NCBI GenBank assembly: GCA_033765305.1
Contig: JANRID010000011.1
Span: forward strand, 1 to 24,000
Length of the DNA stretch: 24,000 bases
Direction of reading: 5' to 3'
DNA from: Bacteroidia bacterium
GTDB taxonomy: Bacteria; Bacteroidota; Bacteroidia; J057
In this document: positions 163-19,419 of the stretch, piece after piece
Layout of the letters: the number at the start of each line of letters is the position of its first letter
Numbering within the stretch: position 1 is the first letter of the stretch
Made by a program: the position numbers and the translations under genes
Notes under the pieces: model-generated
What the model was told of the DNA's origin: nothing
What the model saw: only the letters and a program-made list of their open reading frames with translations
Database searches by the model: none

Positions 163-220
163 GCCTTTTTAGGGTGGGTCTTCTGGGCCCCGGTTGCGGC
201 CTTGGGCCCATCTTAGGGCC

Positions 221-2203
221 ATGAAACCGATTTATTGGGCGTTTACGCTGGTTCTTTCTGGTGGCCTGGTACCCCTGGCGGCGCAGCAACTGCCCCCCAG
301 CGTGCGGGCCATCCACAGCAACCTGGGCGAAGACAGTGCGGGGGTATACGTGCTGACCCCGGCCGGGAACAAGGCCTACGAGGTGAACCCCCCGGCCTTC
401 CCGACCCTGAGCCAAATGATAGGCACCCGCACGGGCTACAAAGACGGCATTGCGCTCGACTTCCAAGCCCCCGACTTCAACGGCCTGGTGTACTACGGCT
501 TCTTGCCCTACGGCGACGGCACCTACATCTACCCCGTGTACGTGCGGCAGGCGCCCGAGGTCATTGGTGGCAAGGTGAAGCTGCCCATCCGCAACCTCAG
601 GGGCCGCTACGACATGATTGGCTGGGAAGCGAAGGGCTGGGGCTACCTGGGCTACCGTGTGGTGAGCAGCAAAGGCGCCATCCTCTACGACGGCAAAATT
701 GCCTTTGGCTACGACGCCAAGGCCGATTCGTTTACTGCCCTAACTACGGTTGTAGAGGGGCCAAAATCCATTTATTTTTCCTCAGAAGAACAGTACGTAT
801 CACTGGCGTTAAATGAAAAACCACATGGTATTGTGATTATTGATTTAATGCCAGGTAAAAAGGCGAGTGAGGGTGGTATATATGATTTAAATCCTACATC
901 AATTAAGTCTTTAACCCTAGTTAAAGATACGGCTACGCTCAACGCCCTTGGAAATTTCAAGGATGAGCTTATTCCGAGCCGGGTTAAAGACAATGAGTCG
1001 CTATATCTTTTTGATTCGCCTTCAATTTCGCGCCCCATTATAATTCCTAGTCGCAGTAGTAGCCCAACAGAGAAGGATCGGTTCACCTTCGCCTATTGCT
1101 CCGACAGCCGCGACAACCAGGGCGGGGGCGAGCGAAACGTGTTTGGCACCAATTTCTACATGGTAAAGCGCATTGGGGCGCTGGCCACCAGCCGTGGCGC
1201 GGCCTTCGTGCAGTTCACCGGCGACCTCATCGATGGCTACCTCACCAGCGCCGACCAGCAGCGGCTGCAGTACGCCAACTTCAAGCGCGCCCTAGAGCCC
1301 TACTGGGGCAGCATCCCCTTCATTTGCGCCCCGGGCAACCACGAGGCACACAGCCGTCTGTTCTACGACACCCAGGGCCAGACCTACTACTCCATAGACC
1401 GTTACCCCTACGCCGACAGTAGCGCCGAGGCCCTGTTTGCCAGCGAATTTGCCAACCCCATCAGCAGTCTTAGGAGCGAAGATGGCGCGGCGTACGACCC
1501 CGACCCCACCGTGCAGAACTTCCCCCCCTACGGCGAGACGGTCTTTACCTACAGCTACGGCAACACGGCCATGGTGGTGCTCAACAGCAACTACTGGTAC
1601 ACCGTGCAGCAGCGCCACGTGCCCCACGTAAGCGGCAACATCCACGCCTACATCATGGACAACCAGCTGGCCTGGCTGGCCCACCAGCTCGATAGCCTGG
1701 AGCGCGACCCGGCCATTGCCCACGTGTTCGTCACCTGCCACACGCCCATCTTCCCCAACGGCGGCCACGTGCAAGACGACATGTGGTACCGTGGCGACAA
1801 CCGCCCCCGGCCCTACGTGGCCGGTAAACCCGTGGCCAAGGGCATCCTCGAGCGCCGCGACGAGATTCTAGACCTGCTCGTCAACAAAAGCACCAAAGTG
1901 CGCGCCACCCTTACGGGCGATGAGCACAACTACTGCCGCACCCAGATCACCGAGGCCATGCCCCGCTACCCCGAGGGGTGGACCGGCCCCCGCCTAGCGC
2001 TCAAGCGCACCATCTGGCAGATCAACAACGGCAGCGCCGGCGCCCCCTACTACGCCCAGGAGCAAACGCCCTGGAGCGCCTTTACCCAGGCCTTCACCAC
2101 CCAGGTGGCCCTGGTCTTTGTGCACGTAAACGGCGACAAGCTCGAGGTAGAAGTACAAAACCCCGACACCCTGGAGGTGATCGATAGGTTTACGCTACGC
2201 TAG
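221..2203 (+). CDS. secreted calcineurin-like metallophosphoesterase with a large N-terminal non-catalytic region
   Basis: The ORF in the track is 194-2203 (TTG start). ATG at 221 is more likely because it gives MKPIYWAFTLVLSGGLVPLAAQQ, a signal peptide. Phosphoesterase motifs are present: CSDSRD, GDLIDGY (GDxxD), APGNHE, VTCHTP and TGDEHNY. Codons about 190-297 lie in the low-GC island (see findings). Confidence 0.8.
   Translation: MKPIYWAFTLVLSGGLVPLAAQQLPPSVRAIHSNLGEDSAGVYVLTPAGNKAYEVNPPAFPTLSQMIGTRTGYKDGIALDFQAPDFNGLVYYGFLPYGDGTYIYPVYVRQAPEVIGGKVKLPIRNLRGRYDMIGWEAKGWGYLGYRVVSSKGAILYDGKIAFGYDAKADSFTALTTVVEGPKSIYFSSEEQYVSLALNEKPHGIVIIDLMPGKKASEGGIYDLNPTSIKSLTLVKDTATLNALGNFKDELIPSRVKDNESLYLFDSPSISRPIIIPSRSSSPTEKDRFTFAYCSDSRDNQGGGERNVFGTNFYMVKRIGALATSRGAAFVQFTGDLIDGYLTSADQQRLQYANFKRALEPYWGSIPFICAPGNHEAHSRLFYDTQGQTYYSIDRYPYADSSAEALFASEFANPISSLRSEDGAAYDPDPTVQNFPPYGETVFTYSYGNTAMVVLNSNYWYTVQQRHVPHVSGNIHAYIMDNQLAWLAHQLDSLERDPAIAHVFVTCHTPIFPNGGHVQDDMWYRGDNRPRPYVAGKPVAKGILERRDEILDLLVNKSTKVRATLTGDEHNYCRTQITEAMPRYPEGWTGPRLALKRTIWQINNGSAGAPYYAQEQTPWSAFTQAFTTQVALVFVHVNGDKLEVEVQNPDTLEVIDRFTLR
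760..1085 (+). other. low-GC in-frame island inside the metallophosphoesterase CDS
   Basis: Hand count: 781-960 has 67/180 G+C (37%) and 961-1080 has 55/120 (46%). The flanks 601-660 and 1081-1140 each have 39/60 (65%). The reading frame is uninterrupted and codons switch to A/T-ending forms (tta, aaa, gat, att, aat). Confidence 0.9.
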
Positions 2204-3087
2204 TCGGGCTTTGGGCCCAACCGGCGGCGCATGTAGCCGTCTACGGTCGTCCAGCGCATGTGGGGGTACTCGCGCTGGAACTTGAGGTTCAGCAGCCCGC
2301 CGCGCAGGGGCCGGGGGGCCACCTGGCTCAGGGCACTGGTGGGTATGCCCTCTAGCCACACTTTCTTCTCGGGGTAGAAGGCGGCCACTTTTTGGGCCAG
2401 GTGCACGCGGCTCACGTAGTCGGTGCTAGCCAGGTGCCACACGCCCTTTTGCTCGTCGTGCATGAGCCACTGCAGGCCGGTGGCTACGTCGGTGGCGTAC
2501 ACGGGCGTAGCGTACTGGTCGATGGGCAGGCGCAGTTGCACCAGCTGCTCGGTGGCAAACTGCTGGATGAGCCGCTCGATGAAGTTTTTGCCGCGGGTTT
2601 CTTCGCCGTACACGTTGGTAATGCGCACCACCAGGCTGTGGGGCACCTGGTCGAGCACCAGGCGCTCGGCGGCCAGTTTGTGGCGGCCGTACACCGAGAG
2701 GGGGTAGGAGAGGTCGTTTTCCTCGTAGGGGCCCATCTCGCCATTAAAGACGTAGTCTGAGCTGATGTAGGCGATCCGGGCATCGCAGGCTTTGGCCAAC
2801 TCGACGAGCTGCTGGGTGCTACCTACGGTCTGGCGGTACGATTCTTCGGGGTCTTTCTCGCACTGGTCTACGTGAGTCAGGGCCCCGCAGTGCACAATCC
2901 ACTCGGGGTCAAAGGCCCGCAGGTCATAGTTGTCGGGGTGGTCTGGCGTGAGGGGGTCGTAGTAGTACGTGCCATCCACCGGGTAGCTGCGGAAGGTGCC
3001 GACCACCACCCAGTCGGGTAGCTGGCGCCACTGGTGCAGGCAGTGGCTGCCCACCAGCCCCGAAGCCCCCACAATTGCCACACGCAT
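2200..3087 (-). CDS. RmlD-like NAD(P)-dependent sugar-nucleotide reductase (dTDP-4-dehydrorhamnose reductase family, SDR fold)
   Basis: 295-aa ORF. It has an N-terminal Rossmann motif (VAIVGASGLVGS), the SDR catalytic YGRHK (YxxxK) and overall RmlD substrate-binding-domain length and layout. Its stop shares the tetranucleotide CTAG with the convergent upstream gene. Confidence 0.7.
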   Translation of the reverse strand: MRVAIVGASGLVGSHCLHQWRQLPDWVVVGTFRSYPVDGTYYYDPLTPDHPDNYDLRAFDPEWIVHCGALTHVDQCEKDPEESYRQTVGSTQQLVELAKACDARIAYISSDYVFNGEMGPYEENDLSYPLSVYGRHKLAAERLVLDQVPHSLVVRITNVYGEETRGKNFIERLIQQFATEQLVQLRLPIDQYATPVYATDVATGLQWLMHDEQKGVWHLASTDYVSRVHLAQKVAAFYPEKKVWLEGIPTSALSQVAPRPLRGGLLNLKFQREYPHMRWTTVDGYMRRRLGPKPD

Positions 3088-3176
3088 TGCGCAAAACTAC
3101 GCCGCATTTACCAGTGTGTTAAACCTGTGGTCTAGGGAATTCTACGGGCCCAGTTGTAGTTATTCGTTTACTCAAC

Positions 3177-3184
3177 TAATTTTG
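3177..3184 (+). promoter_or_regulatory. candidate Bacteroidota -7 promoter box (TAATTTTG = TAnnTTTG) for the yceI-like gene
   Basis: Exact match to the TAnnTTTG consensus, 26 nt upstream of ATG 3210, in a 122-bp AT-richer spacer. A TTG at 3154-3156 sits about 20 nt upstream as a possible -33 element. Confidence 0.35.
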
Positions 3185-3209
3185 AACCAACCTAATCCAA
3201 CCCAAACCT

Positions 3210-3755
3210 ATGAGTACTGCCACGACCACCCTGTGGGCCATCGACCCCACCCACAGCAGCATCCAGTTTAAGGTTAAGCACCTGGTTATCAGCACCGTAA
3301 CGGGCGAGTTTACCGACTACAGCGCCACCGTACAGGCGCCGGCCGAGGGCTTCGAGGGGGCCAAGGTGAGTTTCGAGGCCCAGGTGGCCTCCATTTCTAC
3401 CGGTGTCGGCCAGCGCGACGACCACCTGCGTAGCGCCGACTTTTTCGACGCCCAGACCTACCCCACCCTGCGCTTCGAAAGCACCCGGTTTGCCGCCAAA
3501 GGCGCCGATGCTTTTGAGCTCGAAGGCCACCTCACCATCCGCGACACCACCCTGCCCGTGGTGCTGGCCGTAGAGTTTGGCGGCGTGGTGGTAGACCCCT
3601 ACGGCCAAACCAAAGCCGGCTTCGAGCTCACGGGCAAGATCAGCCGCAAGGCCTTTGGCCTGACCTGGAACGCCACCACCGAAGCCGGGGGTGTGGTCGT
3701 GGGCGACGAAATCAAGCTCGTGGCCAGCGTCCAGCTCGTCAAGCAAGCCGCCTAA
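3210..3755 (+). CDS. YceI-like polyisoprenoid-binding protein (no signal peptide)
   Basis: 181-aa ORF with the family signature: WAIDPTHSSIQFKVKHLVISTVTGEF, ISTGVGQRDDHLRSADFFDAQTYPTLRFES, LEGHLTIRDTT and KISRKAFGLTWN. Confidence 0.9.
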   Translation: MSTATTTLWAIDPTHSSIQFKVKHLVISTVTGEFTDYSATVQAPAEGFEGAKVSFEAQVASISTGVGQRDDHLRSADFFDAQTYPTLRFESTRFAAKGADAFELEGHLTIRDTTLPVVLAVEFGGVVVDPYGQTKAGFELTGKISRKAFGLTWNATTEAGGVVVGDEIKLVASVQLVKQAA

Positions 3756-3777
3756 CCCTAGCGGCCCTACCTACAGC

Positions 3778-3805
3778 ACACGCCCGGCGAACTCGTCGGG
3801 CGTGT
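3778..3805. terminator. stem-loop between convergent yceI-like and rmlC genes (possible bidirectional terminator)
   Basis: ACACGCCCG (3778-3786) pairs perfectly with CGGGCGTGT (3797-3805) around a 10-nt loop. It lies in the 54-bp gap between the two stop codons. There is no strong U-tract. Confidence 0.4.
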
Positions 3806-3809
3806 TGGC

Positions 3810-4343
3810 TTACCGGGGCTTTGCAAACGCCTCTAGCCCCGGCAGGGCCCGGTCGCGGTCGCTGACGGTGGGGTTGGGCAGGGGCCAGGCAAAGCCGAAG
3901 CTGTCGTAGCGGATGCCGCCGTCGTGGCTGGGGGCGTATTCCAGGGTCGTGTGGTAGACCAGCGTGCTGGGCTCGAAGGCCAAAAAGCCGTGGGCGCACC
4001 CGTGGGCGATGTACAGCCCCTGCGGCGTGGCGGGGCTCAGCTCCAGGCTGTAGTACTGCCCGAAGGTGGGCCCATGCCGGAGGTCGACCACCACGTCGAG
4101 CACCCGGCCGGCGGTGCAGTACACCAGCTTGCCGTGGTCGTAGGGCGGCAGTTGCAGGTGCATGCCGCGCAGCACCCCGGCGGCCGAGGTCGAGAAGTAG
4201 CTCTCGCGAAAGGACCAACTGAGGCCCGGCTGAGTGGCGAAGGTGGGCGCGTGTACCGTTTTTACAAAGGTGCCGCGGGCGTCGGCCTGGGGGGCGAAGT
4301 CGAGGCGGTAGCAGCCGGGTAGGGGCAGTGGGGTCAGTTCCAC
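3810..4343 (-). CDS. rmlC: dTDP-4-dehydrorhamnose 3,5-epimerase (cupin fold)
   Basis: 177-aa ORF with a GTG start. It carries the RmlC core motifs DARGTF, LRGMHLQ, HGKLVYCTAGRVLDVVVDLR, GCAHGF and the YHTT...Y..S.D region. Confidence 0.8.
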   Translation of the reverse strand: MELTPLPLPGCYRLDFAPQADARGTFVKTVHAPTFATQPGLSWSFRESYFSTSAAGVLRGMHLQLPPYDHGKLVYCTAGRVLDVVVDLRHGPTFGQYYSLELSPATPQGLYIAHGCAHGFLAFEPSTLVYHTTLEYAPSHDGGIRYDSFGFAWPLPNPTVSDRDRALPGLEAFAKPR

Positions 4344-4346
4344 AGA

Positions 4347-4703
4347 TCAGCAGTCGGCGGTAGCGTGGCGGGTTTCGATGAGCACCTGACGGAATACCTC
4401 CAGCCGGGCGTCGTCCAGTCGGGTAAACCGTATGCAGCCTTTGCCCAGGTTGCAGCCAACCAAAGACGGTTTCAAGCCCTCGGGGATGTGCCGTAAGTAG
4501 AGCGCCAGGTAGTGCTTCTGGGCATTGAATGCATAGACGTAATCGCCCGTTTCGTCGCTGTAGGTGGGCATTTTGTACTGCATACTTTCGCGCAGTTCGG
4601 GTGCCACGTCTTTAAGCAAAGCCCGCAGGCGCTGTAGGTCGTTTTTGCGCGCCGGTGGCAGGCTTTCCAGAAAGGCCTCAACGGTGGGTTCGGTGCTCTG
4701 CAT
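4347..4703 (-). CDS. DUF1801 (YdhG-like) domain protein
   Basis: 118-aa ORF. VEAFLESLPP...LQRLRALLKDVAPELRESMQYKMPTY...HYLALY...KGCIRF is the usual DUF1801 pattern. It sits 3 nt upstream of rmlC on the same strand. Confidence 0.65.
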   Translation of the reverse strand: MQSTEPTVEAFLESLPPARKNDLQRLRALLKDVAPELRESMQYKMPTYSDETGDYVYAFNAQKHYLALYLRHIPEGLKPSLVGCNLGKGCIRFTRLDDARLEVFRQVLIETRHATADC

Positions 4704-4885
4704 ACCACGAAACTAATACCCTGCGCAAGTTTTGAGCTAGACAGATTCTAAGTAGAAAGCGCCTGTCGGAAAGCCGTTTGCATTGCGTTTGGAGAACAAA
4801 GGTCGCACACTAACTTCGCCCCATTCCGGTGAAAAGCACCCCATTCACACCTACCTCCACGACCTCTGTTCTCCCGGCCGCTGCT

Positions 4886-6076
4886 ATGAACCGAACGTTT
4901 ACCCGCGGGGTACTGCTCAGCTTCCTGCTTCTCGGTACGCTACTGGCGCAGGGCCAGGACGTAGCCGCTGGTGAGAAACTCTTTAACGCCAACTGCAAAA
5001 GCTGCCACGCAGTAGATAAGAAGGTCATTGGCCCGGCCCTACAGGGCTGGAAAGACCGCGTGCCCGGCGACGGCTGGATCTACAAATGGGTGCGCAACTC
5101 GACCGAAGTCATCAAATCGGGCGACGCTTACGCCAACCAGATTTACAAAGAGTACAACGGGACGCTCATGACGGCCTTCCCGCAACTCTCTGATGGCGAC
5201 ATCGACAACATCATGGCGTGGGTAGATAACTACACGCCACCTACCCCCCCGCCAGGCCCAGCAACTGCTGCAACTCAACCGCAAGGCAGCATACCTACGG
5301 GCCCGCTCTACACGGGTCTGGTGGTGCTCATCGGGGTACTGGCGCTCATGTCATTTGCGCTCATCTTCCTCATCGTGGTAGTCATTCACGCCGTACGGGC
5401 CAAAGAGAGCGGCACCTCGTTCTCAATGCCCCAGGTGGCGGGCAGCTTCCGCAAGGCGGCCACGAGCAAGTTTACCCTCACGACCGTAACCCTGCTGTTG
5501 GTGGCCGGGGGCCTGAACTACACGGTTAAGACCGCCCGCGGGGTTGGTCTGCACCAAGGCTATACACCTGCTCAGCCAGTAGCCTTCAGCCACAAAATCC
5601 ACGCAGGCCAATACGGTATTAGTTGCAACTACTGCCACACAGGCGTAGAGAAAAGCAAAAGCGCCACCATCCCCGGGGCGAACATTTGCATGAACTGCCA
5701 CAACTACATTGAAGAAGGCCCCAACTACGGTAAGGTCGAAATCGGCAAAGTGCGTGCGGCCTATGAGGCAAATCGGCGCATTGAGTGGGTACGCATCCAC
5801 AACCTGCCCGACCTGGTGTACTTCAACCACGCCCAGCACGTAAAAGTGGGCGGCGTTGAGTGCCAGGAGTGCCACGGCCCGGTCGAGACCATGGAAGTCG
5901 TGTACCAGTTCTCTGACCTGAGCATGGGCTGGTGCATCACCTGCCACCGCGAGAAGCAGGTGGATGTGACCAAGAACGACTACTACCTCAAGGTGCACAA
6001 CGAGTACGTGGGCAAGGAAACAGCCGTCACGGTATCTGACCTCGGTGGCCTGGAATGCGCCAAGTGCCATTACTAA
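4886..6076 (+). CDS. actA: alternative complex III subunit ActA, multiheme cytochrome c with an extra N-terminal monoheme domain
   Basis: The ORF in the track starts at GTG 4829. ATG 4886 gives the signal peptide MNRTFTRGVLLSFLLLGTLLAQG. There are six CxxCH motifs: CKSCH (TGC at 4994), CNYCH, CMNCH, CQECH, CITCH and CAKCH. The gene precedes actB. Confidence 0.85.
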   Translation: MNRTFTRGVLLSFLLLGTLLAQGQDVAAGEKLFNANCKSCHAVDKKVIGPALQGWKDRVPGDGWIYKWVRNSTEVIKSGDAYANQIYKEYNGTLMTAFPQLSDGDIDNIMAWVDNYTPPTPPPGPATAATQPQGSIPTGPLYTGLVVLIGVLALMSFALIFLIVVVIHAVRAKESGTSFSMPQVAGSFRKAATSKFTLTTVTLLLVAGGLNYTVKTARGVGLHQGYTPAQPVAFSHKIHAGQYGISCNYCHTGVEKSKSATIPGANICMNCHNYIEEGPNYGKVEIGKVRAAYEANRRIEWVRIHNLPDLVYFNHAQHVKVGGVECQECHGPVETMEVVYQFSDLSMGWCITCHREKQVDVTKNDYYLKVHNEYVGKETAVTVSDLGGLECAKCHY

Positions 6077-6131
6077 TCTTCTAACGCAGACTTCACCCCT
6101 CCTCCCTCCCTGTCCGCCCGTCATTAAGGCT

Positions 6132-9100
6132 ATGCGCGAGAACCGATACTGGCAGACCCCCGAGCAGTTGCACGCTGCCCCCGCGGGCACCGACCCCAAG
6201 CAGGAGCGCGACATCCCGGTGGATGAACTCCTCGAAAACGCGCTGCCCTCGGGCCGCCGCGATTTCTTGAAGATGATGGGCTTTGGCCTCTCGGCTGCGG
6301 TACTGGCCGCCTGCCAGAAAGCCCCGGTGAAGTATGCGCTGCCGTACGTAAAGAACCCCACCGACCTGGTTCCGGGCATCCCCAACTTCTACGCGACCGG
6401 GTTTTACGATGGCCAGGAGTTTAGCTCCATCCTGGTTAAAACCCGCGAAGGGCGCCCCATTAAGGTTGAAGGCAACAAACTAAGCCCCCTGCACAAGGGT
6501 GGGGTAGGGGCCCGTGCCCACGCCTCGATCCTCTCGCTCTACGACAACTCCGATGCTCGGCTGCGCCAACCGGCCGAAGCCAACGGCGACCAGTTCGTGC
6601 CCGTTGCGTGGGACAAGCTGGACGGTACCGTGCCCGGCAAACTCGCCGAAGCCGCCAATGCGGGTAAGCCCATCTACCTGATTACCGGCTCGGTCATCAG
6701 CCCCATGCGTATGGCCGCCATTGCGGCCTTCAAGGCCAAGTACCCCACCGCGCAGCACGTGGTGTACGATGCCATCAACTACGATGCCATTGCACAGGCC
6801 CACGAGACCCTGCTGGGCAAACGTGCCATGCCAGCCTACCGCTTCGACAAAGCGCAGGTTGTGGCCAGCTTCAACTGCGACTTCCTGGGTACCTGGCTCT
6901 CGCCCACCGAGTTTACCCGGCAATGGACGAGCACCCGCAAGGTGACAGACACCAACCCCACCGTGAGCCGCCTGTACCAGTTTGAGGCCCAAATGAGCCT
7001 CACGGGTGCGAACGCCGACCACCGCATCCCCATGAAGCCCAGCCAGGAAGCGGCTGCACTGGTGGCGCTCTACAATAGTATTGCCGCTCGGGCGCGCCAA
7101 GACATCTACAACGCCCCTAAGGTCGAGCTGGCCGGTAACTTCATTGAGAAGGCCTCGCTCGACCTGTGGGAAGCACGTGGCAAAGCCCTGGTGGTTTCGG
7201 GCACCAACGATGCCAACATCCAGCAAATCGTAGTGGCCATCAACTGGATGCTTGAGGCCTACGGTGCAACGCTGGACCTCGAGCGGCCCTGCCTGCTCCG
7301 CTCGCGCGGCGATAGCACGCTGGAAGCTGCACTGGCCGGTTTTGCCGGTGCCGGTGCGGTGCTCATTCATGGCGGTACCAACCCAGCCTACAGCCACCCC
7401 ACCGCCGAAGCCTTTACCAGCGCACTGGCCAAGGTGCCCTTGCGTATCAGCTTCAGCAGCTACCTCGACGATACGGCCGCACTCTGCACCCACGTAGCGC
7501 CCGACCACCATTACCTTGAAAGTTGGGGTGATGCCCAGCCCTACGCCGGGCAGTACTTCCTGCAGCAGCCGACCATCCAGCCGCTGTTCAAGACCCGGCA
7601 GTTTGAAGAAACGCTCCTGCTCTGGGCCGGGGTCAAGACGACAGCGTTCGATTTCCTGCGTGCGCAGTTTGCGCAAGCCCACAAGGCGTTGGCGGACAAA
7701 AAAGACGCTCCTTCGGTCGACCAGCTCTGGATGCAGAGCCTACACGACGGCTTCTACGTGCACCCCAGCGATGGCAAATCGGCCGATGCGCCCAAGCTGG
7801 CGGCTTCGGTTGCGCCTGCCGTTGCGGCGGCTACCCAGGCCATCAAACCAGCTGAACTTGAGGTTGTGCTCTACCAGAAAGTTGCCATCGGCGACGGTAC
7901 CCTGACCAACAACCCCTGGCTGCACGAACTGCCCGACCCCATCAGTAAAGCGGTGTGGGACAACTACGTGGCCGTAAACCCCGTCGATGCCCAAGCCAAA
8001 GGCATCAAAACCGGCACCCACGTCAAGGTTACGCTGGGCAGTTACAGCGTTGAGCTACCCGCCTACGTGCAGCCCGGCCAAGCCCGCGGCACCGTTGCCA
8101 TCGCCCTCGGCTATGGCCGGACCAAAGGCGGCAAAGTCGTCGAGTACAGCGGCAAAGGCCTGGGCAAGAACGCCTACCCGTTTGTCACCTTCGCCGGGGG
8201 GCTGCCACGGTACAGCGCCACGGGCGCTACCCTGGAGCTCACCGGTGGTTTTACCGAGTTGGCCCTGAGCCAGCGGCACCCCACCTCAATGGGCCGCGAC
8301 ATCATCCGCGAGACCACCTTGTCGGAGTACCGCAAGAACCCCAAGGCCGCCAATGAGCACCAGGTACACATCGTGCAGGTCTTCCCCCAGCACCCCAAAA
8401 ACGGGCACTGGTGGGCGATGGCCATCGATCTGAACGCGTGCACGGGTTGCGGCGCGTGTGTGGTGAGCTGTGTGGCCGAAAACAACATCGCCGTTGTGGG
8501 CCGCAACGAAGTGAAACGCAGCCGCGAGATGCACTGGCTGCGCATTGACCGCTACTACAGCACAAACCCCGAAGCGCTGGAGAAGCAGGACCTTAAGGCC
8601 ATGGAACTGCCCGAGGAGTACCCTCAGGTCATCTTCCAGCCCATGCTCTGCCAGCAGTGCGACAATGCCCCTTGCGAAACTGTGTGCCCTGTGTTGGCCA
8701 CCACCCACAGCAGCGAAGGCTTGAACCAAATGACGTACAACCGGTGCATCGGCACCCGGTACTGCGCCAACAACTGCCCCTACAAGGTGCGCCGCTTCAA
8801 CTGGTTCAACTACTGGAACGACAAGACGCTCTACGGCGATCTGTACTCGCACAGCGAAATGGGCCGCCTGGTGCTGAATCCGGATGTGACGGTGCGTTTC
8901 CGCGGGGTGATGGAAAAATGCTCCTTCTGCGTGCAGCGCCTCCAGGATGCCAAGCTGCGGGCCAAGGTGAATGCCAACAGCACCTTCGCCAAGCCCGAAG
9001 ACGGCGAAGTGAAGACCGCCTGCCAGCAGTCCTGCCCCACAGGCGCGATCGTATTCGGCGACTTCAACGATCCGGAGAGCGAAGTTTCCAAGCTCATCCG

Positions 9101-9257
9101 CCACGAGCGCAGCTACAAGGCACTCGAAGACATCAAGGTGCTGCCGAACGTGCAGTATATGACGCTGGTCCGCAACCGCACCGAGGCGGAAGCGGCTTCC
9201 CGCGCCCGGACCCAGAAGGGGGCAGAAACGCACGCTGCCGCCGACCACCACGGATAA
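6132..9257 (+). CDS. actB: alternative complex III subunit ActB (molybdopterin-oxidoreductase-like domain fused to a 4Fe-4S ferredoxin domain)
   Basis: The ORF in the track starts at 6045 and overlaps actA. ATG 6132 (MRENRYWQTPEQL) is the family-typical start. A twin-arginine motif (SGRRDFLKMMGFGLSAAVLAAC) is present. Cys clusters are CTGCGACVVSC, CQQCDNAPCETVCP, CIGTRYCANNCP and CSFC...CQQSCP. Confidence 0.9.
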   Translation: MRENRYWQTPEQLHAAPAGTDPKQERDIPVDELLENALPSGRRDFLKMMGFGLSAAVLAACQKAPVKYALPYVKNPTDLVPGIPNFYATGFYDGQEFSSILVKTREGRPIKVEGNKLSPLHKGGVGARAHASILSLYDNSDARLRQPAEANGDQFVPVAWDKLDGTVPGKLAEAANAGKPIYLITGSVISPMRMAAIAAFKAKYPTAQHVVYDAINYDAIAQAHETLLGKRAMPAYRFDKAQVVASFNCDFLGTWLSPTEFTRQWTSTRKVTDTNPTVSRLYQFEAQMSLTGANADHRIPMKPSQEAAALVALYNSIAARARQDIYNAPKVELAGNFIEKASLDLWEARGKALVVSGTNDANIQQIVVAINWMLEAYGATLDLERPCLLRSRGDSTLEAALAGFAGAGAVLIHGGTNPAYSHPTAEAFTSALAKVPLRISFSSYLDDTAALCTHVAPDHHYLESWGDAQPYAGQYFLQQPTIQPLFKTRQFEETLLLWAGVKTTAFDFLRAQFAQAHKALADKKDAPSVDQLWMQSLHDGFYVHPSDGKSADAPKLAASVAPAVAAATQAIKPAELEVVLYQKVAIGDGTLTNNPWLHELPDPISKAVWDNYVAVNPVDAQAKGIKTGTHVKVTLGSYSVELPAYVQPGQARGTVAIALGYGRTKGGKVVEYSGKGLGKNAYPFVTFAGGLPRYSATGATLELTGGFTELALSQRHPTSMGRDIIRETTLSEYRKNPKAANEHQVHIVQVFPQHPKNGHWWAMAIDLNACTGCGACVVSCVAENNIAVVGRNEVKRSREMHWLRIDRYYSTNPEALEKQDLKAMELPEEYPQVIFQPMLCQQCDNAPCETVCPVLATTHSSEGLNQMTYNRCIGTRYCANNCPYKVRRFNWFNYWNDKTLYGDLYSHSEMGRLVLNPDVTVRFRGVMEKCSFCVQRLQDAKLRAKVNANSTFAKPEDGEVKTACQQSCPTGAIVFGDFNDPESEVSKLIRHERSYKALEDIKVLPNVQYMTLVRNRTEAEAASRARTQKGAETHAAADHHG

Positions 9258-9264
9258 TGCATCA

Positions 9265-9284
9265 GGCGGGGGCATGCCCCCGCC
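9265..9284. other. perfect GC-rich palindrome / stem-loop in the actB-actC spacer
   Basis: GGCGGGGG CATG CCCCCGCC forms an 8-bp G/C stem with a 4-nt loop, and is fully self-complementary over 20 nt. It starts 8 nt after the actB TAA (9255-9257). Confidence 0.6.
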
Positions 9285-9329
9285 GCTTTCATACCTCTGA
9301 GCGAATATTCCCGGAACAACGAACGGAAC

Positions 9330-10730
<1,401 letters not shown>

Positions 10731-10765
10731 CATCCTCCAGACCCCTCTGATAATCTGCGGAGACA

Positions 10766-11293
10766 ATGAAAGCAAGAAACTTCGTCGTCGGAAAATTCTG
10801 GAACCCCGACCATGTGCTGGAGGCGCTCGACAAGCTGCAGCACGACCGGGTCCTGGTGTATGATGTATTCTCGCCCTTTCCCATCCACGGGATCGAGCCA
10901 TATCTCAATATCAAGCGCACACGGCTGACGGTGGCCTCCTTCATCTACGGCTGCATCGGCGTCACGCTGGCAGTCACGATGATGTCCCTGATCTACGGGG
11001 TGGTATGGCCGGTGAACATCGGCGGCAAGCCCTATGTGCCGTGGGTGGACTTTACGCCGGTGGCGTTCGAGACGACGGTGCTCTTTGCCGCGCACGGCAT
11101 GGTGATCACCTTCTTCATCGTGGGCAACTTCTGGCCGGGCAAAAAGGCCCGCCTGTTCGACGACCGCCAGACGGACGACGTGATCGTGGTGGCGATCGAC
11201 CGCCAGAAAATCGAAAATATGGACGCGGTCCGCAAGACGCTGACGGATGCGGGCGCATTTGAAGTCACCGAACAAATCTCTGAAGGGCGATGA
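10766..11293 (+). CDS. actD: alternative complex III subunit ActD (DUF3341 membrane protein)
   Basis: 175-aa ORF with two central TM helices. The N-terminus (VVGKFWNPDHVLEALDKLQHDRVLVYDVFSPFPIHGIE) is typical of DUF3341. Its stop overlaps the actE start (ATGA at 11290-11293). Confidence 0.85.
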   Translation: MKARNFVVGKFWNPDHVLEALDKLQHDRVLVYDVFSPFPIHGIEPYLNIKRTRLTVASFIYGCIGVTLAVTMMSLIYGVVWPVNIGGKPYVPWVDFTPVAFETTVLFAAHGMVITFFIVGNFWPGKKARLFDDRQTDDVIVVAIDRQKIENMDAVRKTLTDAGAFEVTEQISEGR

Positions 11294-12000
11294 ACCAGCA
11301 AGCACGCATCTTCGCAGTCCTGACGGCAGGCGTTCTGCTCCTGGCGCTCTCCGGCTGCTATACCGACAAATCCCGGCGCAACCTGGAGTATGCGCCCAAC
11401 ATGTACAACTCCCTGCCGCTGGAGCCTTACTCCCAGACGGTTTTCTGGGAGACCAACATCGGCGGCAACTACGAGGCTGCTCGCAAGGACGGCAAATCGC
11501 CCTTTGCCAACGGCCTCAATGCCCAGCGCGCACCCGAAGGCACGGTGCCCCGCACGGAATCGTGGATTACGGCTGCCGACACCCTCGTGCCCTACACGCC
11601 GTATCCGCATCCCGACTCGCCGGAAGGCTATGAGGCTGCCAACGGCTACCTGAGCCCGCTCAATCTGCCCGACCGCAACGGAAAAGGCATTCAGTGCACG
11701 GAGGAAAGCTTCAAGCGCGGCAAGGAAGTGTACGAGATCTACTGCCAGGTCTGCCACGGTGCCAAAGGCGACGGCCAGGGCACGCTGGCGCAGAAAGGGG
11801 TGCTGGGCGGCGTGCCTGCCTACAACTCCGGACGCCTTGCGACCATGACCGCCGGCCAGATGTACCATTCCATCACCTACGGGCGCAACAACATGGGCTC
11901 GTACGCAGCCCAGCTCACCCCGCGCCAGCGCTGGGAGGTGATCTGCTACATCCAGCAGTTCCAGCCGGCCCCCGGCGCTGCGCAACCCGCGACGAATTGA
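11290..12000 (+). CDS. actE: alternative complex III subunit ActE (monoheme cytochrome c lipoprotein)
   Basis: 236-aa ORF with a lipoprotein signal (LLLALSGC) and a single CQVCH heme motif. The downstream ...MTAGQMYHSITYGRNNMGSY segment supplies a likely Met ligand. Confidence 0.85.
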   Translation: MNQQARIFAVLTAGVLLLALSGCYTDKSRRNLEYAPNMYNSLPLEPYSQTVFWETNIGGNYEAARKDGKSPFANGLNAQRAPEGTVPRTESWITAADTLVPYTPYPHPDSPEGYEAANGYLSPLNLPDRNGKGIQCTEESFKRGKEVYEIYCQVCHGAKGDGQGTLAQKGVLGGVPAYNSGRLATMTAGQMYHSITYGRNNMGSYAAQLTPRQRWEVICYIQQFQPAPGAAQPATN

Positions 12001-12029
12001 TTCCCTGAACCCCCATAAACCGTAATACT

Positions 12030-13376
12030 TTGAAAGCGGTACACTATACAAAGGAACAGCTGACCGAACGCTTCGAGTTCACGCCCAAGCTGCGGAACTT
12101 CATCTTCGGTCTGATTGGGGTGGGCCTGGTGCTGGTGCTGCTAGGCGCATTCCTGGGCGGCGGCGGCGAAGAGCACGCCACGGAAGGCGGACACCATGCG
12201 GCAGCTGCCGCAGGCGAGGTGATCGCCGTAGCCGATACGGACGGCGGCCATCATGCCGACCATCCGCCGGTGCTCGTGCGCCGGATTCTGGCCAACCTGC
12301 TCATCAGCAGCCTGTATTTCATGACCATTGCGATGGGCTGCATGTTCTTCCTGACCGTGCACCGCATCGGCAATGCCGGCTGGCATACGGCCATCAAGCG
12401 CGTACCGGAGGCGATCGTGACCTGGCTGCCTGTAGGCGCCGCCGGCTTCGCCATCCTGTGCATTTTCCTGAATCAGCTGTATGAATGGGCGATTCTGCCC
12501 GCAGGGGCCGATGCCATCATCGACTCCAAGCGCGCATATCTCAATCAGCCGTTTTTCATCGCCCGCACGTTTGTGTTCTTCCTGATCTGGGGGGCTGCTG
12601 CCTGGTATTACCGCCGGCTCTCGCACAAACAGGATGCAGCTGCCAGCTCCGATGAAGGGGTGGCCTGGTTCAAGCGCAGCGAAGCCCTTTCCGCTGGGTT
12701 TGTGGTATTCTTTGCCCTTTCCTACAGCTTCTTCGCGGTGGATTGGATCAAGTCGCTGGAGCCGCACTGGTTCAGCACGATCTTCGGGGTGCAGGTGTTT
12801 GCCGGCTCGATGGTGATTGCCAACGTGACGATGTACCTGCTGCTGCTCTACCTCCAGAACCAGGGCTACATGAAGTATGTGAACCCGTCGCACTACCACG
12901 ACCTGGGCAAATACACCTTCGGCTTCTCGATCTTCTGGGCCTATACTTGGCTGGCGCAGTACCTGCTGATCTGGTATGCGAACATTCCGGAGGAAGGCAT
13001 CTACTATGTCAAGCGCTACCGCGTGGAAGATCCTGAGTATCTGGGATATGCGTTCTTCTTCTACGCCAACATCATCATCAACTTCATCACGCCGTTCTTC
13101 GCGCTGATGACCCGCGATGCCAAGCGCCATGCCACGACCTTCGTGCCGGTGGGCATCCTGCTGATCTACGGCCACTGGCAGGATCTGTTCCAGATGGTGA
13201 TGCCCGGCGCAGTCGGGAAGAACCAGGGAATCGGCTTCCTCGAGATCGGTTTCTTCCTGGCGTTTGCAGGCCTGTTCATGCTGGTGGTGTTCCGCTCGCT
13301 GACCCGCGCCAATCTGGCGCCCGTCAACCACCCCTATCTGGAGGAAAGCCTGCACCATACGACCGGGGCCGTTTGA
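12030..13376 (+). CDS. actF: alternative complex III subunit ActF (NrfD-like membrane subunit)
   Basis: 448-aa polytopic ORF in the actF position. Only a TTG start (12030) is available upstream of the first TM helix, so the start is uncertain. Confidence 0.8.
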   Translation: MKAVHYTKEQLTERFEFTPKLRNFIFGLIGVGLVLVLLGAFLGGGGEEHATEGGHHAAAAAGEVIAVADTDGGHHADHPPVLVRRILANLLISSLYFMTIAMGCMFFLTVHRIGNAGWHTAIKRVPEAIVTWLPVGAAGFAILCIFLNQLYEWAILPAGADAIIDSKRAYLNQPFFIARTFVFFLIWGAAAWYYRRLSHKQDAAASSDEGVAWFKRSEALSAGFVVFFALSYSFFAVDWIKSLEPHWFSTIFGVQVFAGSMVIANVTMYLLLLYLQNQGYMKYVNPSHYHDLGKYTFGFSIFWAYTWLAQYLLIWYANIPEEGIYYVKRYRVEDPEYLGYAFFFYANIIINFITPFFALMTRDAKRHATTFVPVGILLIYGHWQDLFQMVMPGAVGKNQGIGFLEIGFFLAFAGLFMLVVFRSLTRANLAPVNHPYLEESLHHTTGAV

Positions 13377-13456
13377 CGGATTAAGAAAATCGTATATTTG
13401 GATCAACAATCCTTCCCCTCTCCCAGTTATAGACTTACCATACCGAGATACGCTGC

Positions 13457-14521
13457 ATGGATGCACAGTCCCTTATCAGTCTCGCGCAATGGCTGCTGGT
13501 GCTCATTTTGGGCATGGTCTGCGCGAACCTTTACCTGGTATTCCGCCTGAAGGATCTCGATCCCTTCGCCCGCTGGAACGCAAACCTGATCAATGCCTGG
13601 CTGCTGCTGCTCTTTATGATCGGCGGATTCATCGCAGCTGCGGTGTCGACTGGCGTGTGGAAGGAGCATTTTACGCTCGTCTTCGATTCCGCATCGGAGC
13701 ATGGGGAATGGATCGATGCGATGTTCTGGCGCACCATGGCCGTATCGATCTTCGTGACGGTCATTACGAATGTGCTGCTCTTCTATTACGCATGGCGCTA
13801 CCGCGCCCGCGAAGGCCAGAAGGCGCTCTTTTATCCGCATAACAACAAGCTGGAGCTGATCTGGACCATCATTCCGGCCATCGTGCTCACGGCCCTGATT
13901 CTGGACGGCGCGTTCAAGTGGCTCAAAATCACAGGTCCTGCTCCGGACGACGCGCTGCTGGTGGAAGTCAACGGCAAGCAGTTTGCCTGGACGGCCCGCT
14001 ATCCCGGCGCAGATCTGGAATTTGGCGAGACGAATGTCCGCCTGATCGACGAAGGCAAGGGCAACACGCTCGGATTCAACCTCGAAGACAAGCGAGGCCA
14101 TGACGATCTGGTTACCAATGAAATGGTGATTCCGGTCAACACGGATATTGAGATGAAGATCCGCTCCCGCGATGTGCTTCACAGCGCTACGCTGGCCCAT
14201 TTCCGGGTCAAGATGGATGCGGTGCCCGGCATGATGACCCGCTTCCACTTCAAGCCGACCAAAACGACGGCTGAAATGCGGGAGATCAAAGGCAATCCGG
14301 ACTTCGAATACGAAATGTCCTGCCAGCAGATCTGCGGCGGCGGCCACTGGAACATGCGTCTGGTGGTGAAAGTGGTGACGATGGAGGAATACAAAGCCTG
14401 GGCTGCCCAGCAGCAGACCTTTATCGCCTCCTACCGTCAGCTGAATCCGGAAGCCGGCGGAGCACAGGCCGATGCTTCCGAAGCAGAAGCCACAGCGCCT
14501 CAGATGGCAGTTTCCCGCTGA
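13457..14521 (+). CDS. coxB: cytochrome c oxidase subunit II (CuA subunit, no fused cytochrome c domain)
   Basis: 354-aa ORF with N-terminal TM helices and a cupredoxin domain. The CuA ligands are DVLHS ... SCQQICGGGHWNM (H, C, C, H, M). Confidence 0.9.
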   Translation: MDAQSLISLAQWLLVLILGMVCANLYLVFRLKDLDPFARWNANLINAWLLLLFMIGGFIAAAVSTGVWKEHFTLVFDSASEHGEWIDAMFWRTMAVSIFVTVITNVLLFYYAWRYRAREGQKALFYPHNNKLELIWTIIPAIVLTALILDGAFKWLKITGPAPDDALLVEVNGKQFAWTARYPGADLEFGETNVRLIDEGKGNTLGFNLEDKRGHDDLVTNEMVIPVNTDIEMKIRSRDVLHSATLAHFRVKMDAVPGMMTRFHFKPTKTTAEMREIKGNPDFEYEMSCQQICGGGHWNMRLVVKVVTMEEYKAWAAQQQTFIASYRQLNPEAGGAQADASEAEATAPQMAVSR

Positions 14522-14569
14522 TTGAATGGTACCCGAATCGTAATACTCAGAGCATAAGCGTTCGTATAT

Positions 14570-16459
14570 ATGGCTGAAGTCACTTCGCATGCAGCCGTGA
14601 CAGTTGGGGGGCACGCACACGAGCACCACGATCACGAGCACCACGGAAATTTCTGGACGAACTACGTGTTCAGCACCGACCATAAGGTCATCGCCAAGCA
14701 GTTCATGATCACCGGGATCATCATGGCGATCATCGGGATCGGGATGTCCACGCTGTTCCGTCTGCAACTGGCCTTTCCGGACACCAACTTCCCGGTCCTG
14801 GAGTTTTTCCTCGGGAAATGGGCCCCGGATGGCAAACTCGATCCGAATTTCTACCTGGCCCTGGTAACGATGCACGGGACTTTCATGGTCTTTTTCGTGC
14901 TCACGGCCGGCCTGAGCGGCACCTTCAGCAACTTCCTGATTCCGCTGCAGATCGGCGCGCGCGACATGGCGTCGGGCTTCATCAATATGCTTTCGTACTG
15001 GTTCTTCTTCGCATCGTCGGTAATCATGCTGATTTCCCTCTTTGTGGAGACGGGCCCTGCTGCTGCCGGCTGGACGATTTATCCTCCGCTCAGCGCACTG
15101 CCTGAAGCGATTCCGGGCTCCGGTGTCGGGATGACGCTCTGGCTGGTGGCCATGGTGCTCTTCATCGCCTCGTCGCTGATGGGCGGCATCAACTACATCG
15201 CCACGGTGCTGAACCTCCGCACGGAAGGCATGTCGTTCGACCGCCTGCCGCTGACCATCTGGGCCTTCTTTGTAACGGCGATCCTCGGGGTGCTTTCCTT
15301 CCCCGTGCTGCTGGCCGCAGCGCTGCTGCTGCTGTTCGACCGCTCATTCGGCACCAGCTTCTATCTCTCCGACATCTTCATCGGCGGTGCCGCCATGCAC
15401 CACCAGGGGGGCAGCCCGATCCTGTTCCAGCACCTGTTCTGGTTCCTCGGCCACCCGGAAGTATATATCGTGCTGCTGCCCGCACTGGGCATCACCTCCG
15501 AGATTGTATCGGTGCACAGCCGCAAGCCGATCTTCGGCTACAAGGCTATGATCGGTTCGATTCTGGGCATCGCTTTCCTTTCGTTCATCGTGTGGGCGCA
15601 CCACATGTTCGTGACCGGGATGAACCCCTTCCTCGGAACGGTGTTCATGCTCTTCACGCTGGTGATCGCCGTGCCTTCGGCCATCAAGGCGTTCAACTAC
15701 ATCGCCACGCTTTGGAAGGGCAATATCCGGTTTACGACGCCGATGCTGTTTGCAATCGGTCTCGTATCCTTCTTCATCACCGGCGGCATCACCGGCATCT
15801 TCTTGGGCAATGCAGCGCTGGACATTCCGCTGCACGATACCTACTTTGTGACGGCGCACTTCCACCTCGTGATGGGTTCGGCTTCGGCCTTCGGCTTCTT
15901 CGCCGGGATCTACCAGTGGTTCCCCAAGATGTTCGGCCGCCAGCTGAACGCACGCCTGGGCTATCTGCACTTCTGGTTTACGTTTGTATCGCTGTATCTC
16001 GTGTTCTTCCCGATGCACTTTATGGGCATGGGCGGTGTGGCACGCCACTATTACAGCCAGACGGCGTTTGACTTCATGAACGTGTTCGGCGACCTGCAGG
16101 TGTTCATCACCATTGCGGCGATCATCGGCTTCTTCGGGCAGTTCTTCTTCCTGTGGAACTTTGTGACCAGCATTTTCTGGGGCAAGCAGTCTTCGCTCAA
16201 CCCCTGGGAATCCAACACGCTGGAGTGGACTACGCCGCTGCATCCGGGCCACGGCAACTGGCCGGGCGCGATTCCTGCAGTGCACCGCTGGCCGTATGAC
16301 TATTCCCGCCCCGGTGTGAAGAAGGATTACCTGCCGCAGCACATTCCGGATGAGGAAGTAGAATACGAAGAAGGATTCAAGCCGGAACTCGATCCGCATC
16401 ATGCCCCTGCGCCCAAGCGCAAGCAGGAGACGGGCGAGAAGACGGAAACAGCTGAATAA
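14570..16459 (+). CDS. coxA: cytochrome c oxidase subunit I (heme-copper oxidase catalytic subunit)
   Basis: 629-aa ORF with the classic motifs HGTFMVFF, GAAMHHQGGSPILFQHLFWFLGHPEVYI, WAHHMF and HDTYFVTAHFH. It has a His-rich N-terminus and an acidic C-terminal tail. Confidence 0.95.
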   Translation: MAEVTSHAAVTVGGHAHEHHDHEHHGNFWTNYVFSTDHKVIAKQFMITGIIMAIIGIGMSTLFRLQLAFPDTNFPVLEFFLGKWAPDGKLDPNFYLALVTMHGTFMVFFVLTAGLSGTFSNFLIPLQIGARDMASGFINMLSYWFFFASSVIMLISLFVETGPAAAGWTIYPPLSALPEAIPGSGVGMTLWLVAMVLFIASSLMGGINYIATVLNLRTEGMSFDRLPLTIWAFFVTAILGVLSFPVLLAAALLLLFDRSFGTSFYLSDIFIGGAAMHHQGGSPILFQHLFWFLGHPEVYIVLLPALGITSEIVSVHSRKPIFGYKAMIGSILGIAFLSFIVWAHHMFVTGMNPFLGTVFMLFTLVIAVPSAIKAFNYIATLWKGNIRFTTPMLFAIGLVSFFITGGITGIFLGNAALDIPLHDTYFVTAHFHLVMGSASAFGFFAGIYQWFPKMFGRQLNARLGYLHFWFTFVSLYLVFFPMHFMGMGGVARHYYSQTAFDFMNVFGDLQVFITIAAIIGFFGQFFFLWNFVTSIFWGKQSSLNPWESNTLEWTTPLHPGHGNWPGAIPAVHRWPYDYSRPGVKKDYLPQHIPDEEVEYEEGFKPELDPHHAPAPKRKQETGEKTETAE

Positions 16460-16467
16460 TTCCGCTA

Positions 16468-17457
16468 TTGGAATCTCCTATCCCGACGGCAGCGCCCGCA
16501 GTGAAACGCTATCGATGGATGGCAGGCATCACGGTGGGCGCTGTCATCTTTTTGATCCTGGTAGGTGCGCTGGTGCGCATGACGGGATCGGGCATGGGCT
16601 GCCCTGACTGGCCGAAATGCTTCGGGCAGTGGGTGCCGCCGACGGATATTTCACAGCTGCCGGCGGATTATAAGATCCGGTTTCAGGTGGCGGGGAAGGA
16701 AATCGCCGATTTCGACCCGTACAAGACCTGGATCGAGTACATCAACCGGCTGATCGGGGTGCTGATCGGGCTCTTTGCGCTGATTACGGCGGCGCTGTCG
16801 CTGCCGTTGCGGCGGCTAGATCCCTGGATCACGCGGTGGAGTGCAGCGGGGCTGGTGCTGGTGATCCTGCAAGGGGGGCTGGGTGCGTATGTTGTGCGCA
16901 CGAACCTGAAAACCGGCATCATTACGCTGCACATGCTGATGGCGCTGCTGGTGCTGGCGGCCTTTATGGCGGCGTGGATGCGGACCCTGCGCACACAGGC
17001 GAATGCAGAGCCCGGGCTGTTCCGGCTGTCGCTGGCGGCGCTGCTGCTGACGCTGGTGCAGATTCTGCTGGGCACCCAGGTGCGCGAGCAGATCGACGAG
17101 CTGGCGATTGCGCTGGGATCGGACCGGCGTGCGGAGTGGATTGCGGGGCTGGATGCGCTGTACGACGTGCACAAGGTATTTTACTATGTGCTTGCGGCAG
17201 CGGCGGCGGCGGTGTGGTGGCAGGGAAGACGTTCGGGCACGCGCGCATTGCGGCTGCTGAGCTGGAGCTTGCCTGCGGTGGTGGCAGCGGAGGTGCTGCT
17301 GGGGCTGGGGATGCATCACCTGGCTGTGCCGGCGGTCTTTCAGCCGTTGCATTTGTTGGCTGCAACGCTGTTATTTGCGGGGTTGTTTCTGATGACGGGA
17401 TTGGCCTGGCCGCGGCGGCCGGGTGCAGAGCAAGCACATGATGAACATGCAAGATAA
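16468..17457 (+). CDS. ctaA: heme A synthase (COX15/CtaA family)
   Basis: 329-aa polytopic ORF carrying VRMTGSGMGCPDWPKCFG and conserved His-containing helices (HMLMALL, HKVFY, HLLAATLL). The start is ambiguous: TTG 16468, GTG 16501 or ATG 16519. Confidence 0.85.
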   Translation: MESPIPTAAPAVKRYRWMAGITVGAVIFLILVGALVRMTGSGMGCPDWPKCFGQWVPPTDISQLPADYKIRFQVAGKEIADFDPYKTWIEYINRLIGVLIGLFALITAALSLPLRRLDPWITRWSAAGLVLVILQGGLGAYVVRTNLKTGIITLHMLMALLVLAAFMAAWMRTLRTQANAEPGLFRLSLAALLLTLVQILLGTQVREQIDELAIALGSDRRAEWIAGLDALYDVHKVFYYVLAAAAAAVWWQGRRSGTRALRLLSWSLPAVVAAEVLLGLGMHHLAVPAVFQPLHLLAATLLFAGLFLMTGLAWPRRPGAEQAHDEHAR

Positions 17458-18343: not shown

Positions 18344-18358
18344 GGTTGAGTCCGGGAT

Positions 18359-19417: not shown

Positions 19418-19419
19418 GG

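Follow-up and report, generated by a model that had tools for sequence, protein, structure and literature searches.

The first 24,000 nucleotides of contig JANRID010000011.1 (GenBank assembly GCA_033765305.1, Bacteroidia bacterium; hereafter the window) carry an act operon for alternative complex III (ACIII), followed by genes of a caa3 oxidase. An initial annotation of this DNA had pointed to a sharp switch in synonymous codon choice between actB and actC. Comparison of the sequence with its relatives suggests, with a probability of about 80%, that the window belongs to a chimeric contig of a metagenome-assembled genome (MAG), in which a Bacteroidia lineage of the JANRLA01 type (lineage A) would extend to position 8804 and a distant Bacteroidia lineage (lineage C) would begin at 8805. 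The window is a mosaic with two compositional signatures that meet inside actB, at a stretch shared by lineage A and a relative of lineage C, and both of its arms occur elsewhere as separate, non-mosaic contigs. The codon "dialect" switch is the genome signatures of two organisms set side by side, and the act operon as it stands combines subunits of two organisms. The join was most likely made by an assembler and not by a cell, and as biology the switch is most likely not a real feature. The name JANRLA01 is used in GTDB as a placeholder for a taxon of Bacteroidia that accompanies Microcystis in cultivated phycospheres (PMC13533211).

The junction inside actB

Base-level alignment to the closest relative of the left arm, a 113.8-kb contig (L081; GCA_964440845.1, contig CAYTTT010000008.1), shows identity falling from ~100% to ~73%, plus indels, at 8804/8805. 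Past 8804, the ~73% identity to lineage A is no better than that to Rufibacter or other Bacteroidota. A break at 9091, as given by BLAST, was rejected as over-extension through a conserved block. The crossover from A to C is placed within 8781-8804 or at the 3' edge of this interval, a 24-nt stretch (TACAAGGTGCGCCGCTTCAACTGG) that codes for YKVRRFNW and is identical in the window, in L081 and in a C-like relative, L090. Among all relatives, none matches 8000-9300 exactly over a longer run than L090 does, with a 45-mer at 8781-8825. At the protein level, the hybrid ActB (P0121) and P0001 part directly after ...NCPYKVRRFNW.

The affinities of the encoded proteins flip across this junction. ActA is 100% identical to its counterpart in L081 and the N part of ActB 99.5% identical, compared with 47-53% for ActA and the ActB N part (48-49% for the latter) against L089 (GCA_033762375.1) and L090 (GCA_054679755.1), which are otherwise the closest relatives to the right arm. 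The C part of ActB is 64% identical to L081 and 68-72% to L089/L090, and ActC, ActD, ActE and ActF match L081 at 65, 38, 46 and 44%, compared with 86, 65-74, 59-65 and 66-67% for L089/L090. The initial annotation had allowed for a break either in the iron-sulphur (Fe-S) domain of ActB or in the actB-actC spacer; the former location was correct, the latter was not. Its view of two arms with separate histories is upheld by the drop in identity at 8805, the flipped protein affinities and tetranucleotide correlations of 0.63-0.67 between the arms against 0.96 within lineage A. The comparison of best relatives that it had proposed as a check separates the arms in the same way, with L081 on the left and L089/L090 together with C-type Logan contigs on the right.

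Protein searches with ActB returned one cluster at 94% identity, whose representative lies on L081, and then nothing above 54%. In a database of 5.8 billion clusters, the hybrid or a C-type ActB C-terminus was found in no protein other than P0121, and the C-terminal 185 residues used as query had a best match of 71%. The best non-A matches of ActB, P0002-P0004, were considered as native lineage-C ActB and rejected on their A-like C-termini. A degenerate-pattern scan of metagenome contigs for the C-type peptide just past the join gave no match, exact-protein look-ups of ActC (466 aa), CoxA and P0121 returned no record, and no independent contig spans 8805-10473. ActF is a 100% match to P0124, which lies on the same MAG contig as P0121; a scan of genome contigs with ActF returned only distant Bacteroidota at ≤46% identity and did not locate the parents. 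The public entry for the hybrid ActB (MDX2283269.1, P0121) starts at an internal GTG and has 886 rather than 1041 amino acids, without the N-terminal twin-arginine translocation (Tat) signal region.

Codon usage on either side of the junction

With genes pooled and read in coding sense, proline CCC:CCG is 110:29 in 1-8804 and 35:63 in 8805-16459 (odds ratio 6.8, p=1.5e-11), and threonine ACC:ACG is 118:45 and 55:84 (odds ratio 4.0, p=9e-9), which confirms the switch described for these two amino acids. Alanine GCC:GCG also changes at the break (177:58 vs 97:60, p=0.005), but most of the alanine shift lies at ~16460, and the supposed move of serine towards TCG was not borne out (TCC:TCG 9:25 in the left arm, 42:49 in the right). 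The G3-C3 skew, the bias between G and C at third codon positions, goes from -0.27 in 1-8804 to -0.10 in 8805-16459. Computation of codon and tetranucleotide usage, which had been suggested as a check, thus returned CCC/CCG ratios and skews that differ between the arms. Overall GC content stays flat over the break (0.620 in 8001-9000, 0.619 in 9001-10000), as had been stated. Recounting reproduced most of the hand tallies exactly: third positions C21/G11/T4/A4 in actB 6480-6599; 5 CCG and no CCC in the first 130 coxA codons; 9 CCG, 1 CCC and 1 CCT in the first 150 codons of the GT2 gene (from 21020); and, at the actB 3' end, CCC 8778, CCG 8880, CCC 8994, CCC 9036, CCG 9072 and CCG 9144. For the metallophosphoesterase-like gene the count is 8 CCC and 4 CCG instead of 9 and 3.

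A likelihood changepoint scan, using synonymous codon choice alone over 1-16459 and 100 permutations, gave its best split at 8778-8787 with a log-likelihood ratio of 109, compared with a permutation maximum of 28. The same scan of the contiguous relatives L081, L089 and L090 gave ratios of 29-42, near the permutation maximum, and none of these splits fell at actB/actC. In the L081 operon the native actC, actD, actE and actF of lineage A have Pro CCC/CCG of 13/5, 4/3, 11/4 and 11/7 and Thr ACC/ACG of 30/6, 10/3, 10/3 and 16/4. Effects of membrane proteins or expression therefore fail to explain the switch, because these genes keep the codon style of the left arm. Relative synonymous codon usage (RSCU) of actA and actB in the window correlates at r=0.92 with actC-F of L081 and at 0.79 with actC-F of the window itself, and the latter correlate at 0.96 with coxBA of the window and at 0.92 with actC-F of L090. 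Tetranucleotide frequencies give r=0.63-0.67 between the arms, compared with 0.96 between the left arm and the true downstream DNA of lineage A, and 0.86-0.95 between parts of the right arm and further lineage C DNA.

A second, stronger shift lies at coxA/ctaA (~16460), where the G3-C3 skew rises from -0.09 to +0.52 (16200-16520, on to 24000). It involves Gly GGC to GGG, Arg CGC to CGG, Leu CTC to CTG and Ala GCC to GCG (p=1e-5 to 1e-9) and leaves Pro and Thr unchanged; the changes in Gly, Leu and Arg are a phenomenon separate from that at actB/actC. This shift is native to lineage C, since L089/L090 share the step (coxA -0.01/-0.06, ctaA +0.32/+0.23) and independent contigs span the boundary. 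It probably reflects a difference between structural and assembly-factor genes inside one genome. The premise of the initial annotation that genes of one operon share their codon bias is only partly true, given this natural shift in contiguous relatives, and the GT2 gene, which it had used as an example of the right arm, is as much an instance of the second shift as of the first.

The second shift also accounts for a sign change of GC skew near 16.2-16.5 kb, with a cumulative-skew minimum near 16 kb. A replication origin at 16.2-16.5 kb was considered and rejected: the shift is at codon level and common to contiguous relatives, and independent contigs run through the region without a break. 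Further joins at 16460 (coxA/ctaA) and 18946 (COX3/HIT) were likewise rejected, as two C-type contigs (L093, L094) span both positions at 100%.

Free-standing counterparts of the two arms

L081 is syntenic with the window from its start through actF, after which it carries an M16 peptidase and other genes, not coxBA. This native continuation of lineage A (A-type actB 3' end, actC-F, then the M16 peptidase) occurs in three contigs, L081, L082 and L092. L092 (GCA_033763015.1, JANRLA01) is 100% identical to L081, and its contig end corresponds to 8682, 123 nt upstream of the join, which places a break of another assembly within the conserved stretch. Free-standing A-type contigs identical to the left arm are L081, L088 and L095; the last, a Logan contig from DRR729083, is 100% identical to 3883-4907, including the private single-nucleotide variant at 4496.

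Sites diagnostic for lineage A against a sister strain, strain B (L082, a Logan contig from SRR22746113), are A-type in 650 of 650 cases up to 8033. In 8102-8599, the window differs from L081 at 28 sites, nearly all of them third codon positions, and follows strain B at all but one; outside this patch strain B is 92-95% identical. No other B-type patch exists in the 8.8-kb left arm, and this one lies directly upstream of the junction, such that the haplotypes run A, B, A, C inside 700 bases. Two A-type Logan contigs, L087 (SRR12977061) and L088 (SRR12989705), both end at 6331, inside actB, where L082 has an exact 38-mer in common. These contig ends suggest another fork from co-occurring strains.

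From actC to past the end of the window, the right arm represents genuine, contiguous genomic sequence. Logan contigs L083 (DRR729084) and L084 (DRR729082) are 100% identical over 10473-15445, L093 (DRR729085) over 15416-24000 and L094 (DRR729084) over 15581-24000, together covering 13.5 kb at 100%. Lineage C DNA runs at least 19 kb past the join (to ~28 kb in window coordinates, in L093), keeping the C signature and without synteny to A. The only exact match of ≥31 nt between A and C in the right arm is a 35-mer inside actC (10464-10498), and the k=31 C-type Logan contigs begin inside it, at 10473 and 10482. Starts at these positions imply that DRR729082 and DRR729084 contain an A-type actC besides that of C, and that k-mers common to both versions of these genes lead the assembly graph to fork.

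Origin of the join

Of the origins offered by the initial annotation, the joining of two related genomes in assembly through a conserved stretch is probably correct, rather than recombination or horizontal transfer. If lineages A and C each carry an ACIII operon, and their actB genes share the exact stretch at the Fe-S motif YKVRRFNW (8781-8804), the assembler could have reached this shared node along the A path and continued along the C path; just upstream, it may already have strayed onto the path of the co-existing sister strain (8102-8599). An assembly chimera is favoured because the nearest relative changes abruptly at one point, where protein affinities flip and codon and tetranucleotide signatures diverge, and because the join sits in a 24-nt stretch that is exact in lineage A and in a C-like genome. 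It is favoured further because the only strain-B patch in 8.8 kb adjoins the join, because the native A arrangement was seen three times and the hybrid only in this contig, because contigs of other assemblies (L092, the C-type Logan contigs) end or begin at shared stretches of these genes, and because both exact strains are present in one run series. This series, a possible source of the contig, is DRR729082-85, with the exact strain of the left arm in DRR729083 (L095) and that of the right arm in DRR729082, DRR729084 and DRR729085.

Several points weigh against an assembly chimera. The case for it was built on assembled contigs rather than reads, and on the first 24,000 nt of the 80,895-bp source contig. 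The exact match between A and C is only 24 nt, measured through L090 as a proxy, which is enough for k=21 and short for the final k of assemblers; the true C parent may have a longer stretch in common with A. The native actA and 5' part of actB of lineage C were not found in protein or contig searches, so the second parent is seen from 8805 only. The join is also in frame and leaves the ActB reading frame intact, as real homologous exchange would.

A real and very recent recombination, in which a cell of lineage A acquired 19 kb or more of DNA from lineage C (the actB 3' end, cox, cta and beyond) through one crossover at the 24-nt microhomology, with its own actC-F and downstream DNA replaced and a hybrid ACIII as the product, is unlikely, though not negligibly so. 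A homologous, in-frame mosaic with intact ActB fits such an event, as do the presence of A and C in the same communities, where donor could meet recipient, and the fact that one donor would have supplied the C-terminal part of ActB, ActC-F and the oxidase together, as one coherent module of the membrane; the 500-bp B-type patch is moreover the size of an ordinary gene-conversion tract. Phylogenetic affinity does differ on either side of the in-frame crossover, but a chimera shows the same feature. With both arms 100% identical to free-standing contigs elsewhere (8 kb for A, 13.5 kb for C), any biological event would have to be of essentially zero age. The junction was found in no second assembly, while the native A arrangement recurs, and the C DNA that could be followed (to ~28 kb) never reverts to the backbone of lineage A. 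Identity between the A and C subunits is just 38-65%, and a hybrid complex may therefore fail to assemble. RecA-type exchange between ~73% identical DNA anchored on 24 nt is rare, which also counts against recombination. The corresponding biological claim, that a Bacteroidia strain of the Microcystis phycosphere very recently exchanged its ActB C-terminus, the entire membrane module of its ACIII (ActC-F) and the adjacent caa3 oxidase/haem A cluster for those of another family-level lineage by a single crossover at 24 nt of microhomology, yielding a hybrid complex, is just as doubtful, if not slightly more so.

Two other explanations would leave the window native. Natural codon heterogeneity within one genome, with membrane genes (actC, D, F, cox) or differently expressed genes G-ending and soluble ones C-ending, is very improbable. 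The C3-rich genes of the window do encode mostly soluble proteins and the G3-richer ones mostly membrane proteins, and contiguous relatives show a mild drift in skew from actB to actC (-0.17 to -0.07) besides the clear coxA-ctaA shift. However, membrane subunits in the contiguous operon of lineage A stay CCC>CCG and ACC>ACG, the control scans remain far below the score of the window, and heterogeneity cannot account for the drop in identity or the flipped protein affinities. As an explanation of the 8805 break it is refuted, and it remains the best account of the shift at ~16460. The least probable explanation, hardly credible, is that the window is intact and contigs of the L081 type are the chimeras. 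L081 is indeed the product of a re-assembly by a third party, and the contig end at which L092 starts falls in the conserved stretch. Against this, three contigs of separate origin carry the A-type continuation, one of them from strain B at 92-95% identity, and the codon usage and tetranucleotide frequencies of this continuation match the left arm.

Gene content and further features

The features of the window are collected in Table 1; the gene map derives from Pfam scans and from gene calls on identical contigs. The operon has the components of alternative complex III, with a multihaem cytochrome c (ActA), ActB, and then ActC-D-E-F in order. ActB matches Molydop_binding (a molybdopterin-like domain) and Fer4 families (4Fe-4S domains). 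In lineage A and in L089, ActA has an extra N-terminal monohaem cytochrome c domain (PF00034/PF13442, ~45-134) before its multihaem c7/c3-like part, which the ActA of L090 does not have.

Table 1. Genes and sequence segments of the 24,000-nt window.
Feature	Position	Strand	Basis or remark
Lineage-A segment	1-8101		One mismatch (4496) to L081; metallophosphoesterase-like gene to most of actB
Metallophosphoesterase-like	221-2203	+	Pfam/gene calls
rmlD-like	2200-3087	-	Pfam/gene calls
YceI	3210-3755	+	Pfam/gene calls
rmlC	3810-4343	-	Pfam/gene calls
DUF1801	4347-4703	-	Pfam/gene calls
actA	4886-6076	+	Pfam: Cytochrome_C7/c3, Cytochrom_C
Hybrid actB reading frame, 1041 aa	6132-9257	+	Molybdopterin-like domain and most of Fe-S domain from lineage A, last 150 codons from lineage C; Pfam, protein comparison
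Strain-B haplotype patch	8102-8599		27/28 variable sites as in L082, not L081
Return to A haplotype	8600-8804		3/3 diagnostic sites A; codes for most conserved Fe-S motifs, CDNAPCETVCP...NCPYKVRRFNW
Junction stretch, 24 nt	8781-8804		Codes for YKVRRFNW; identical in window, L081 and L090
Lineage-C actB 3' end	8805-9257	+	Gaps of 3 nt and 30 nt against lineage A, as in L089/L090
actC, actD, actE, actF of lineage C	9330-13376	+	CCG/ACG-type codon usage
actC (NrfD-like)	9330-10730	+	Pfam
35-mer inside actC	10464-10498		Longest exact match of C arm to lineage A's own actC
actD	10766-11293	+	PF11821
actE (monohaem cytochrome c)	11290-12000	+	Pfam
actF	12030-13376	+	No Pfam match; homologues named quinol:cytochrome c oxidoreductase
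coxB and coxA of lineage C	13457-16459	+	Codon style of actC-F (RSCU r=0.96)
coxB	13457-14521	+	Pfam/gene calls
coxA	14570-16459	+	Pfam/gene calls
ctaA to SpoIIE start	16519-24000		Lineage C, G3-rich
ctaA	16519-17457	+	Pfam/gene calls
ctaB	17438-18343	+	Pfam/gene calls
COX3 gene	18359-18946	+	Pfam/gene calls
HIT	19013-19417	+	Pfam/gene calls
RuvC	19420-20007	-	Pfam/gene calls
LPG-synthase-like membrane protein	20097-21026	+	Pfam/gene calls
GT2	21020-22153	+	Pfam/gene calls
91-aa reading frame	22150-22425	+	Gene calls
oppC	22455-23567	+	Pfam/gene calls
SpoIIE gene, start only	to 24000	+	Pfam/gene calls

In the metallophosphoesterase-like gene, GC at third codon positions dips to ~0.54 at 600-900, compared with 0.7-0.9 elsewhere in the gene. 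The Metallophos profile matches residues 335-404 of the protein only, and its N-terminal half has no domain assignment.

The actB-actC spacer of lineage C is 72 nt long, compared with only 11 nt in lineage A, and contains a perfect 20-nt GC-rich palindrome, GGCGGGGGCATGCCCCCGCC, at 9265-9284, followed by GCTTTCAT. A consensus scan of this spacer found no canonical terminator, and the exact palindrome had no match in a scan of metagenome contigs.

Downstream, the oxidase cluster of lineage C ends after the first COX3 gene and is followed by HIT and, on the minus strand, RuvC (18359-20007), an arrangement that L093 and L094 confirm. At the matching point, L089/L090 carry a second COX3, COX4, a 225-aa reading frame and DUF420; the oxidase subunits missing from lineage C are presumably encoded elsewhere in its genome. 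RuvC, the sole minus-strand gene of the right arm, has a third-position skew of -0.39 in its own sense, among plus-strand neighbours that are G3-rich. A minus-strand hydrolase gene of L090 is likewise C3-rich (skew -0.38), and the minus-strand genes of lineage A have no such pattern. These skews point to a pronounced asymmetry between the strands of lineage C.

Implications

If the join is an artefact, a public Bacteroidia MAG holds an 80.9-kb contig stitched from two organisms, and the ActB entry MDX2283269.1 is a hybrid absent from nature. Both contig and entry should be flagged, since phylogenies of ACIII, analyses of gene context and metabolic models for bacteria of the Microcystis phycosphere would otherwise be led astray. 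The finding is valuable for quality control, both of the record and of the entry for hybrid ActB, and it illustrates that a reading of codon "dialect" by amino acid can locate a chimeric join to ~20 bases despite flat GC. A real join would mean that the replacement of half a respiratory operon between distant lineages had been caught in the act, which is rare.

Comparison with known systems

Mosaic genes and operons arise by homologous or homology-facilitated recombination between diverged lineages, as in the mosaic pbp genes of streptococci. These resemble the window in having an in-frame crossover within a conserved motif and sides of different affinity. However, real mosaics are met again in independent isolates, and the imported tract usually gives way to recipient sequence, whereas the present mosaic is a single observation without such a return within reach, and both of its sides are identical to separate contemporary populations. 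That codon usage varies within a genome with expression or protein class is generally known; such variation fits the shift at ~16460, but not the proline and threonine switch at 8805.

Among the clusters for ACIII and caa3 oxidase of Bacteroidota, those of L089/L090 have the order actABCDEF, coxB, coxA, ctaA, ctaB, COX3, and the right arm is like them from actC to the first COX3. The same gene order is found in Rhodothermus. Lineage C differs from these clusters in that its own ends after the first COX3 and is followed by HIT and RuvC, and lineage A differs in having an act operon without cox genes behind it.

Interspecies translocation is a recognised class of metagenome misassembly (PMC10174551, PMC8201837), which is defined by MetaQUAST and which GUNC and ResMiCo were built to detect (PMC8201837, PMC10174551). 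The window resembles this class in its flanks, which have different nearest relatives and signatures and come from co-occurring source populations, and in its join at a short, apparently shared stretch of a conserved gene, the kind of stretch at which neighbouring assemblies break. It differs in that the join lies in a respiratory coding gene and not in an rRNA operon or mobile element, and in that the comparison draws on contigs, with the 24 shared nucleotides seen through a proxy.

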